Assembly: GCA_964016885.1 (NCBI GenBank)
Contig: OZ024753.1
Coordinates: 4,712,001 to 4,776,000, forward strand
Length of the DNA stretch: 64,000 bases
Direction: 5' to 3'
Source of the DNA: Eledone cirrhosa
Lineage: Eukaryota
Part shown: positions 3,432 through 50,803 of the stretch, in pieces
Layout of the letters: the number at the start of each line of letters is the position of its first letter
Position numbering within the stretch: the stretch's first letter is position 1
Notes under the pieces: model-generated
Databases searched by the model: none
The model's input: only the letters and a program-made list of their open reading frames with translations
Told to the model about the DNA's origin: nothing
Position numbers and translations under genes: made by a program

Positions 3432-3600
3432 AGGAAAAGGTTTAACCCCGACGGCTATTTCAGTCCAGAAATATCCGTCGAAACGAACTGAGCTCTGCCG
3501 TTGGGTTAAAGTTTTTCCTATTACCCACTCTACTACCCTAAATATTGAGTACTCTGGTGCGTTATGGTCCATCTGGTTCATTACCACACTTCCTTCGTTA
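3432..3600 (+). mobile_element. Short PLE pLTR fragment with partial hammerhead and inverted 5' end, in (TA)n
   Basis: Stem II-GAAA-stem III present, CUGANGA absent; 3432-3454 is an imperfect inverted copy of ~3495-3521; same family as 50599-50803. Confidence 0.7.
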
Positions 3601-4067
3601 TATATATATATAAGCAAAATGATTAAAGAAAGAGTTACAAGCCGTTAAATCATATCGTTATGAAGCTCTTACATATATATATATATAATTAGAACAGCTT
3701 GGATTGTTCAGAATGAAGGTAGCTATAGATAAACCAGTATGTTTATTAATGGATCCATATTCGGTTTAACAAATCACTATTTGAGTTTGCCTGAAAAATT
3801 TACTTCTTTTTCAGATTGAGATTGTTTGCCAGTACATTTGCACCATTTTGTTGTCTATTGTACTGTGCTACACATCTACGCATAATATGTCTATCACAAA
3901 ATGTTAATGATCGTATGAGTTCAGGAATATTAAATAAGGAAAGTGAAAGTGAAAATAGATTTAATCCCTTTGAGAATGCTCAACATCGTCATGATCATTA
4001 TCATTATCATTATCCTCATCTTCGTCATCAACACCATCGTCATTACTGTCGCCATCATTTTCATCAC

Positions 4068-4350
4068 CATTTAATGTCCACTAACCTGCTTGCATATGTT
4101 AGACGAGTTGTCACGTTCTAAATCTGATTCATCCTATGAACATGTCTTTCTCAAAAGTTTTATTTTTAGCGCAGTTTCTACGGCTCGATATCCTTCCTAA
4201 CACGACCCACTTTACAGTGTATACTGGGATCAATTTATCGTGACAACTGCACTATCACCTTACAGCTTCGACTTGGTTATTTTGTCGTGGCACCAACACT
4301 ACTGCATCAGGGTACAGACTGAGTGCTTTTCATCGTGACGCCAGAATCGC
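4068..4350. repeat. Diverged interspersed repeat (SINE/RTE-like 3' region) next to a (CAT)n tract
   Basis: Resembles, from memory, a common octopus repeat (GTTTCTACGGCT...CTTCCTAAC...CCACTTTACAG); has repeated TCGTGRCAC-like subunits. Confidence 0.45.
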
Positions 4351-4710
4351 TGAGGAGAAATTGATAGGAGTAGACCAACGTGGAATTGGAAGCGCCAGGT
4401 CATAGGATTGACTTAAAGGGAGTGTTTTGTGTCTAGCGGTATATTCTATAGCATCACTGGCATTATTGTACAAAATATCTGGGGTTTTTTTCTTCCACAA
4501 TTCTTTTATCAGGTTAGCTGATTTTAGATACCCCGTTCCTCCATGATTGTTGCGATGTAAGGGGAGGGGTATCCCAAAATCAGACATAGCCTGCATGTTT
4601 GTAACAGAGTACACCTCACTAAACATACCTAAATGTTAAACCAGACGAAGGGTACGGCCACCCACCGGAATAGTGCACAGTGTGATTTGAATTTAAAACA
4701 CTAATATCCA

Positions 4711-4800
4711 TAACAAATGCAGTAAAATATCAAGATACAATAGTAATGCTTAACAAATAACAAATGCAGTAAAATATCACGATACAATAGTAATGCTTAA
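4711..4800. repeat. Tandem duplication, ~43-bp unit x2
   Basis: TAACAAATGCAGTAAAATATCANGATACAATAGTAATGCTTAA twice. Confidence 0.9.
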
Positions 4801-48388: not shown

Positions 48389-48490
48389 TACAGGTGTCCC
48401 AAAAAATGTATACACACCTCAACATCATTCTAATCAATAATACCTGTATAGGTAATCAGAGTGTGTATACATTTTTTGAGACACCCTGTA
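48389..48490. mobile_element. Tc1/mariner-type MITE, ~100 bp
   Basis: TIRs TACAGGTGTCCCAAAAAATGTATACACAC and GTGTGTATACATTTTTTGAGACACCCTGTA; TA ends. Confidence 0.8.
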
Positions 48491-50260
48491 TATATATATA
48501 TATATATATATATATGTACGTATATATTATACAGTATATATATATGTATATATATGTACGTATATATTATACTGTATATATATATATATGTATATATATA
48601 TATAAATACAGTATATACTGTATATACATACATATATATATACTCATAAATGCCTATATCCATTTACATGTGTGTGCTTGTACGCCTCTGTGTGCATGTA
48701 TGTCATAAGAGCAATGATAATAAGTGGACAGTGGTCTAAGGTTTCATTTAGAAATACGAGAGATAAAGTATATCGTAAATGATTAGATTTGACACTTTAA
48801 TCGATAATATCTATATTACTGTATCAAACTTTCCTTGGAAGTCAATAGCTGTTTAAGTATGTAATAAGAGATCATTTAATATCGACGATTTACGGGCAAC
48901 TTTGATTCTTCTCAGGTGATAGCGGCATAGTTGATGAGATTTCTATTTGCTTTATGGAATGAAATTGATAGGTGTATCGTTGCTGTGAGATAGGTAAGCA
49001 AGTATGTAATCAAAAAACAAAACATTGACATAAAAAGTCTTTGTATATGTTATTTAATCACATTGTAAATATTTACCAGGTTTTTATGGATGTTTTATGA
49101 CAGGATTATTCAGATGAACATACACACATCTTCAAAAACGTATGTATATAGAAAAACGAATTATAGCCGACACTTCAAAGTCATTGCCAATGTTTTCTTC
49201 AAAAAATAATATATCAACTCTTCTTTATGTATTGAGTTCTCAACTAGTAAATGTTTAACTGTCTACATGTATAATTATACATAAAAGACCACCGTTAATA
49301 CTATGATATAATATAAATATATATACATTACATATATATATATATATATATATATATATATATATATATATATATATATATATATATATATATATATATA
49401 TATATATACAGAGAGAGAGAAAGAGAGAGGAAGAGAGAGAGAAATAATGAGAGCTAGATACATAAGTATCGATGTATATACATGCACACATATACAAACA
49501 CACTCACTTACTTTTATGTGTTTGGATGTGTGTCCTTGTATATATATATATATATATATATATATATATATATATATATATATATATATATATATAAGGG
49601 GTGTGTATGAACTGCGTATATTAATACCATATCGCTATTATGATTGCTTATTCCGCTTCGCGATTCCTTCATAATCAAAAAAAAGTTTTATTACTTTCCA
49701 TTCTATTTTGGCACACACTAACTCATCAGATTAATGCATACAACGTAATGCATATATATATATATATTTATATATATCGTTGGAAAACTAGTGTCGTAAA
49801 TAAGATATTGTAATATAAGTTTCACTTTAGTAGCAATAATAACGGTCCGTTTAAAAATCAGAGTTCAAGTGAATTGAAGCTCATTACAAAACGAATATGA
49901 AAGTCTTCCTACCTTACTTCAATTTTGACCCAAAATTCAAACGCGACAAATTTTAATAGAATAGAAGTTTCGGCAATATGAAATATATTAACAGTTCATT
50001 TTGTTCCATATCATATAATCATACGTCTGGATAAATAATTTCGGTAATAACAAGAGTAGTAGTACTCGTAGAAATTTGAGGTTTCATATTTGTTCTCATG
50101 ATTCCTTTTTGATGCATACTCTCATAGATCTTCATAATATGGATTCAAAATGTTTTCGATTTCGTTCCATAGTTGTTTAAGGTGAGTACGCTACATGAAC
50201 GTTGTGACAAGCATGATGATATGAAATGATATGCAGGAATGTATCTAAGATGAGAACCAG

Positions 50261-50445
50261 TTCAGTTCGAAATTCATCGACGATTGTCCCTCTTGCTTCT
50301 GCTGAACACCGCCAGGTGGCGGTAGCAGCCGGTGTTTTTGCATAGCTATGGCCTTCTAAATTATAAACATACCGTATTTCTTTAGAAATACGAAATTCCA
50401 GTACATATCTGTATACAGCTATCCTCGAAGATAAATTCTAATACT
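50261..50445. repeat. Dispersed repeat carrying a CTCF-like motif, copy 3 (inverted)
   Basis: Reverse-complement similarity to 514-675 and 217-362. Confidence 0.8.
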
Positions 50446-50598
50446 CTCTCTCTCTCTCTCTCTCTCTCTCTCTCTCTCTCTCTCTCTCTCTCTCTCTCCT
50501 CTCTCTCTACATATATATATATATAAATATATATATATATATATATATATATATATATATATATATATATATATATATATATATATATATATATATAT

Positions 50599-50803
50599 GA
50601 ACCAGTAAGACCCCGACGGCTGAGCTCAAGCCGTTTCGACGGCTAATTCTGGACTAGAATTAGCCGTCCAGAATTAGCCGTCGAAACGGCTTGAGCTCAG
50701 CCGTCGGGGTCTTACTGGTTCCTATTACCCACTCTACTACCCTAAGTATTGAGTACTTTGGTGCGTTATGGTCCACCTGGTTCCTTACCACATTTCCTTC
50801 GTT
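50599..50803 (+). mobile_element. Fold-back PLE pLTR fragment with partial hammerhead, in (TA)n
   Basis: Perfect 56-bp arms 50599-50654 and 50666-50721; GAAA CGGCU-UGAGCUC-AGCCG UC^; tail homologous to 3520-3600. Confidence 0.8.

Follow-up and report, generated by a model that had tools for sequence, protein, structure and literature searches.

Background

Penelope-like elements (PLEs) of the Hydra clade are marked by a C-terminal GIY-YIG endonuclease, a CxCX5C linker, the motifs RW(K/R), DKT, CxxC and CxH, a hammerhead close to the 3' end and insertion into (TA)n (Craig et al. 2021, PMC8557442). Inverted pLTRs, that is, head-to-head 5'-truncated copies that often have a tail at one end only, have already been described among PLEs, where they are optional and ascribed to self-priming or to endonuclease resolution (PMC3846280, PMC8557442). 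How the inverted ends and one-sided tails originate was named as an open question in PMC8557442 and has been partly answered by in vitro work on Poseidon_Ac, in which both target strands were nicked and extended, two internal start sites bounded the tail, and the start sites did not differ between the strands (Frangieh et al. 2024, PMC11167929). That the tail is delimited by two internal starts has therefore been proposed before. A circular template has also been proposed, for PLE tandems (PMC4209133).

The inserts analysed here come from a 64-kb stretch of the Eledone cirrhosa genome, which we call the window, and from related copies elsewhere in the 3.0-Gb assembly. They have the same head-to-head, 5'-truncated form as the described inverted pLTRs; however, what is optional there is near-obligate here, and many of the pairs cannot be fold-backs. 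The inverted insertion with a one-sided tail is a known form, and the addition made here is the strict pairing of a long with a short end, together with twin hairpins. Neither was found in a literature search, the older subscription Penelope papers and the Repbase notes being outside its reach.

Layout of the five inserts

All five inserts are made of two element 3' ends that are joined at their 5' sides and run outward into (TA)n, as a first-pass annotation of the window had described, and we recovered its distances of 5, 12, 5, 2 and 9 nt between the last match of the short arm to the long arm and the ACTC position in inserts 1 to 5. The tail is one-sided in all five; counted from the last-match point it measures 77, 74, 93, 85 and 81 nt, slightly below the 75-100 nt first estimated and longer than the 30-40 nt given for the Hydra clade (PMC8557442). 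The pattern ACTC-N8-22-TNGAGTRC has exactly five matches in the window, one in each insert, against a mean of 0.44 and a maximum of 3 in 200 shuffles. We call this hairpin HP1, and we read the orientation of the arms from pieces of the hammerhead core.

Inserts 1 and 5 are 86% identical and make up one family (A), so that the window contains four families (A, B, C and D) and not five. In insert 1 the short arm (3433..3468, minus strand) stops at its outer side 8-5 nt ahead of the ACTC position, where TAT is common to element and target, and the long arm (3463..3598, plus) holds the 3' half of the hammerhead, HP1 (3527..3552, plus) and the tail. Arm alignment places the short arm of insert 5 at 50599..50655 (minus) and its tailed long arm at 50660..50802 (plus), with HP1 at 50731..50756 (plus). 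The value of 9 nt in insert 5 results from a private base change at position 50598, where, in run X19, 2741 of 2870 first-mate-plus reads show G instead of T; once corrected, it becomes 5 nt, the family A value. Insert 2 (family B) has its long arm at 13954..14085 (minus), with the hammerhead core at 14081-14059, HP1 at 13995..14015 (minus) and the tail, and its short arm at 14086..14140 (plus), with the core at 14087-14109 and the end 17-12 nt before the ACTC position. The short arm of insert 3 (family C; 32002..32155, minus, core 32099-32057) ends 9-5 nt before that position, and the long arm (32160..32410, plus) carries the core at 32212-32254, HP1 at 32323..32350 (plus) and the tail.

Insert 4 (family D) is the largest. 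Its long arm (40826..41920, minus) contains an inverted 3' UTR, the hammerhead core (41013-40972), HP1 (40886..40907, minus) and the tail. A 5'-truncated Hydra-clade ORF follows at 41970..43813 (plus), with a reverse transcriptase (RT) frame at 41877-43169 and a frame with the CxCX5C linker and GIY-YIG endonuclease at 43130-43813, the frame break lying at a C run (43147-43158). The short-ended arm then continues through the 3' UTR (43814..45625, plus; core 45522-45563) and stops 7-2 nt before the ACTC position. A piece of a dispersed repeat at 41742-41801, matching 39966-40025, is present in the long arm only and has a flanking duplication of about 19 nt.

Other repeats of the window lie near the inserts. 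A sixth hammerhead-bearing arm, from another family, was seen between TA tracts at 13697-13895 (minus); it is unpaired and has no ACTC motif after the ribozyme, and a relative is present in locus L196. This arm, insert 2 and long TA tracts are enclosed by a unique 68-nt inverted repeat (13389-13456 / 14603-14670). A minimal hammerhead core of another PLE-like family is found at 22188-22211 (minus), and L001 and L028 have TA tracts flanked by similar sequence. A different type of element is represented by a 408-nt inverted repeat, 96% identical and with equal outer ends (10693-11100 / 12969-13376), which has a small ACTC...GAGTAC palindrome close to its end. In a pattern search the ACTC motif was absent from these two inverted repeats and from those at 48274-48348/48642-48716, 29173-29238 and 32483-32574, which were not scored as counter-examples to the pairing rule. 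A non-LTR-type ORF fragment at 60338-60856 (minus) is unrelated to the inserts.

Identity of the elements

The inserts come from four PLE families and are pairs of 3' ends, head to head, in (TA)n; families A, C and D belong to the Hydra clade by their predicted ORFs. Full-length, intact ORFs are found elsewhere in the genome for D (742 aa) and A (717 aa), which are 41% identical, and family C has an ORF of the same type in broken pieces; no ORF was found for family B, which is therefore assigned only by its hammerhead, hairpin and target. A single ORF with an RT followed by a C-terminal GIY-YIG endonuclease was recognised by eye from its motifs in D and A, and in pieces in C; a Pfam scan of the ORFs gave nothing significant. 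The linker reads CNCRNKSNC in the window, CNCPDRSIC in A and CNCRNKPDC in C, with CCHH absent, and the C-terminal motifs read CDLC or CNLC and CRH or CKH. RWR, a variant of RWK, and DKT are present in A and D. One intact D copy (L227) has Y in place of the first linker C. The hammerhead core, a predicted ribozyme, is canonical by pattern in B, C and D and variant in the A masters; among 150 of 316 Rfam matches listed there were only low-complexity miRNA-type matches and no hammerhead.

The (TA)n targets, the protein motifs seen in A, C and D and the predicted hammerhead near the 3' end are in line with the published description of the clade (PMC8557442). However, the units are 3.5-4.1 kb long (3531-3544 nt in A, about 4.1 kb in D), whereas Hydra elements are generally shorter than 3 kb, which is a tendency and not a strict criterion (PMC8557442). 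The clade is very abundant in this genome, with 63,239 first-look candidates for the endonuclease, a figure that is not a copy number. Many family D copies with an open frame of at least 740 aa occur among the best 150 matches, and this family looks recently active and abundant.

Pairing of long and short ends across the genome

Loci were taken as the best-scoring 16-30 of each of seven DNA searches, a selection that over-samples young copies; 20 unpaired loci were extended, and ends were called allowing for TA microhomology. These searches gave 147 unique head-to-head pairs, among which 140 combined a long with a short end, none combined two short ends, and 5 were of other types or cut off. 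Two tailed arms together, which if common would speak against the asymmetry, were seen in 2 of the 147, one being a tandem read-through (L066) and the other a true long+long pair (L108). A free choice of site would give long+short in at most half of the pairs. With tail-blind queries, which lacked the tail, the combination was found in 61 of 63 pairs, the assembly matches comprised 50 short versus 24 long ends, and 11 of 76 loci were unpaired arms, two of these being the window's own distant pair. The tail-blind search had no match for family B, common words being skipped, and the pairing of this family is thus drawn from tail-containing queries.

Mapping the endpoints genome-wide, as the first-pass annotation had suggested, placed the short ends in a cluster just 5' of the motif, and 451 of 457 TA-joined arm ends fell in either a short (-25 to +1) or a long (+60 or beyond) class. 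The modes are -8/-5 and +72 in A, -9/-5 and +87 in C, and -7/-2 and +83 in D, and the short modes are sharp (42 of 47 in A, 30 of 35 in D). In family B the short ends have modes at -6 to -4 or -17/-12 within a spread from -25 to +1, and the long ends lie at +61 to +67. The same stretch contains 15 TA-type runs in C and 21 in D, so microhomology alone does not pick the end sites.

We also followed 42 other tailed hairpins that were bystanders at these loci. There was no partner within 2.5 kb for 23 of them, and 14 of the 19 with a partner fit the short-end position, the partner ending in (TA)n at -8 to +1; they represent about seven further families by eye. Of the five misfits, L116 is a read-through with a second hairpin and L030, L043, L058 and L100 are ambiguous or weak cases. 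The long+short rule is general within these families. It had first been put forward as a rule for PLE integration at large; it holds genome-wide here, and its demonstration extends to Hydra-clade elements only.

Raw reads bear on the reality of the palindromes, whose absence from them would have been a serious objection. Head-to-head joints are present in raw 150-nt Illumina reads, and such junctions are therefore not only assembly products. The reads came from restriction-library runs of three animals in one study and were placed on the family A master, from which they pass into (TA)n chiefly at two points, 5 nt ahead of HP1 and 3 nt ahead of a second hairpin, HP2; past HP2 the read depth falls more than 100-fold. 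Long ends numbered 8198, 8915 and 11517 versus 3181, 2774 and 2773 short ends, which is about 3:1 and not 1:1. This excess counts against the both-ends model, although bias from the restriction library, the alignment length or repeat filtering may explain it; the tail-blind assembly matches are instead richer in short ends.

A second hairpin behind the long end

Full-length tandem copies have the layout hammerhead - HP1 - tail - HP2 - ATG. In tandem copies of family D the sequence beyond the long end is ATATAT and four bases, then the paralogous hairpin HP2, then the ATG, and HP2 was seen by eye at 26 of 30 ORF-start loci. It is likewise present in family C and in a fifth family (L116). For family A we predicted it, and its pattern then gave 343 matches where the reversed pattern gave 0; here the hairpin follows the long-end TAT by three bases. 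Searching by pattern for an HP2-bearing master of family B yielded 3 matches, and no clear master was among them. A family B locus, L305 (G000:C4:369998436-370001496), has three tandem 83-nt units made of HP1, the tail and 18 nt past the long end; these 18 nt are not TA, and the locus hints that the template extends beyond the long end. Because ordinary insertions stop just before HP2, this hairpin is not visible in the window inserts, and with HP2 just behind the long end the tail corresponds to the spacing between the two hairpins.

The ends in families A, C and D are 0-10 nt short of one or the other of the two tandem hairpins, both bulged, and lie on TAT or ATAT just 5' of HP1 or HP2, with one of each per insertion. 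The first-pass annotation had the hairpin position the short arm; that end is indeed linked to a hairpin, but so is the long end, and the association is not specific to the short arm. A metagenome element, 37% identical, has hammerhead, HP1, tail, HP2 and ATG in the same order, and its inserted copy stops at TATAT before HP2. Five of the eight metagenome loci were short fragments without usable ends, and L317 and L318 are the same insertion.

The hairpin is built on a 4-bp RCTC/GAGY stem, above which come a 2-nt bulge on the 3' side and an upper stem that varies; RC follows the hairpin. The upper stem pairs best when the 2-nt 3' bulge is allowed; the mean over 25 bystander clusters is 2.44 bp, compared with 0.58 and at most 1.40 after shuffling. 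In 28 hand-picked hairpins the basal pair is A-T in 13 and G-C in 12, and G-U versus A-C pairs number 8 versus 4, counts that do not separate an RNA from a DNA form. The same hairpin can be recognised by eye in the consensus file of PMC8557442, in Hydra-2_Amil and Hydra-2_Ajap and as two in tandem before the ATG in Hydra-1_Ajap; the coral and sea cucumber consensus sequences carry it, and the agreement is only partial for the copepod and octopus entries. As far as the accessible main text of that paper goes, the word 'hairpin' does not occur and no end rule is given. A family A mini-array with a 257-nt period (L310, G000:C1:27007000-27013000) combines half a ribozyme, HP1, HP2 and the ORF start and is retrozyme-like.

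Origin of the two arms

The geometry of the 140 long+short pairs is informative about how the arms were copied. The arms do not overlap in 10 pairs, and another 10 have a short arm that extends beyond the 5' end of the long arm by more than 15 nt, so that in these 20 pairs, where the arms are joined at their 5' ends and independently copied, the short arm holds sequence that the long arm lacks and fold-back copying from the long arm is excluded. In the others the long arm is longer (8 pairs), the 5' ends lie within 15 nt of each other and either route fits (67), or no class was given (45). The junctions of 66 close pairs have short filler (48), overlap (16) or a blunt joint (2). In L001-L060 the 5' truncations of family A cluster at hammerhead stem II (-65/-71), where a 14-nt duplication is frequent, and those of family B at stem I (-70 to -73), positions that are partly query-selected.

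In families A, C and D the two arms carry the same subfamily allele at 276 of 285 site-pairs, where 188 would be expected; family B arms gave no allele signal. Shared alleles would fit a single RNA template, and two RNAs of one locus or gene conversion between the arms could fit as well. The family A masters are arrays of near-identical 3.5-kb units; units of one array differ by 0-1 base and those of different arrays by 26-31 mismatches. Two arrays were followed to both ends and obey the rule, one end being short and the other long.

From these comparisons we consider it likely that head-to-head long+short ends of the Hydra type form when both nicked (TA)n strands prime on one element RNA, one strand per hairpin. 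The end positions suggest that the RT-endonuclease would bind each hairpin in the RNA, that the bound hairpin would set the start of reverse transcription about 6-10 nt upstream, and that 1-6 nt of A/U pairing with the target end would fine-tune it. The two cDNAs would stop independently of each other and be joined head to head through microhomology or short filler. A duplication or deletion of target sequence left by a staggered cut would be masked in (TA)n. A circular or multimeric template, which has less support, would put HP2 behind the long end and let an arm span several units. The first-pass annotation had already proposed two priming events at a (TA)n break; two copying events are backed by the genome-wide copies, that they began by priming is what we infer, and which end comes second is not readable from the sequence. 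We hold more tentatively a wider reading, on which opinion could well go either way, that a duplicated bulged RNA hairpin occurs clade-wide and serves as a start ruler for a telomerase-related RT, a circular or multimeric RNA being primed once per hairpin from both sides of the symmetric (TA)n break. Programmed twin priming would then be the normal route and would explain the tail, the inverted pLTR and the arrays.

A one-sided origin from a single priming event, in which the cDNA folds back, copies itself and joins the far target end near HP1 (self-priming, PMC3846280), would also produce alleles common to both arms, and it predicts what is seen in families A and B, where the 5' ends of the two arms, close to the hammerhead stems, are in 64 of 70 pairs no more than 15 nt apart. 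However, it is impossible for the 20 pairs described above and for an array in which a four-unit short-ended arm lies beside a short tailed arm; it is refuted as a general route and very doubtful as the main explanation, although it may contribute to small A and B inserts. It is still less probable that chance TA microhomology alone sets the ends, the hairpin being a bystander. Most ends do lie on TAT or ATAT, and 5 of 23 family B short ends use a 5-nt TATAT at -17/-12, but the many TA-type runs of C and D serve as ends almost exclusively where they adjoin HP1 or HP2, 12 of the 23 family B short ends lie at -6 to -4 with 1 nt of homology, and the spacing is conserved between unrelated tails and between species. 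Assemblies easily go wrong at palindromes in AT-rich repeats, and an artefact, or one palindromic master that was multiply copied, might be suspected; yet junctions vary from copy to copy, either arm can be the 5'-longer one, and raw reads contain the joints and both ends. We regard this reading as largely refuted and give it almost no credence.

Two other explanations accept the hairpins and differ in how they act. The ends might be cut rather than started, a longer cDNA being trimmed by the GIY-YIG endonuclease at TA steps set by hairpins in DNA. The tail has been ascribed to endonuclease resolution of an intermediate (PMC8557442), the ends are on TA steps as in the target, and the folding energies and the G-U and A-C counts are compatible with an antisense or DNA hairpin; trimming alone, however, does not account for one-of-each pairing or for long arms that consist of the tail only, and internal starts were directly shown in another clade (PMC11167929), so we think it unlikely. 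Alternatively, an asymmetric dimer of the protein might work with two RNA molecules, HP1 always being taken by one subunit and HP2 by the other. The arms overlap by tens to hundreds of bases, and a single template needs the same stretch to be copied twice; a PLE dimer is moreover predicted in PMC11167929. Against this, the allele agreement exists despite hundreds of master copies and would need both RNAs to come from one locus, and there is no evident source of the asymmetry, which makes the arrangement rather improbable in our judgement.

Relation to other systems and significance

The preferred route, priming of both nicked strands on one RNA, resembles the twin priming of L1. In L1 the second priming site is variable. 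Twin priming likewise has two primers on one RNA and cDNAs joined head to head by microhomology (PMC10760644); it is occasional in L1, whereas here most two-armed insertions use two sites that are both internal and fixed. With Poseidon_Ac the proposed route would have in common the extension of two strands, two internal starts that bound the tail and the involvement of a stem-loop (PMC11167929). That element, however, is of another clade and has one AC-rich stem-loop inside the ORF, and its description, in the parts accessible, reports no duplicated signal and no pairing of ends (PMC11167929).

With two short mutable RNA motifs at a fixed distance to each end, and families with intact ORFs, the question becomes directly testable: if the hairpins set the starts, breaking or moving one should abolish or shift one end. 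A telomerase-related RT with its start signal 3' of the template would also be informative about template choice in this group of enzymes.
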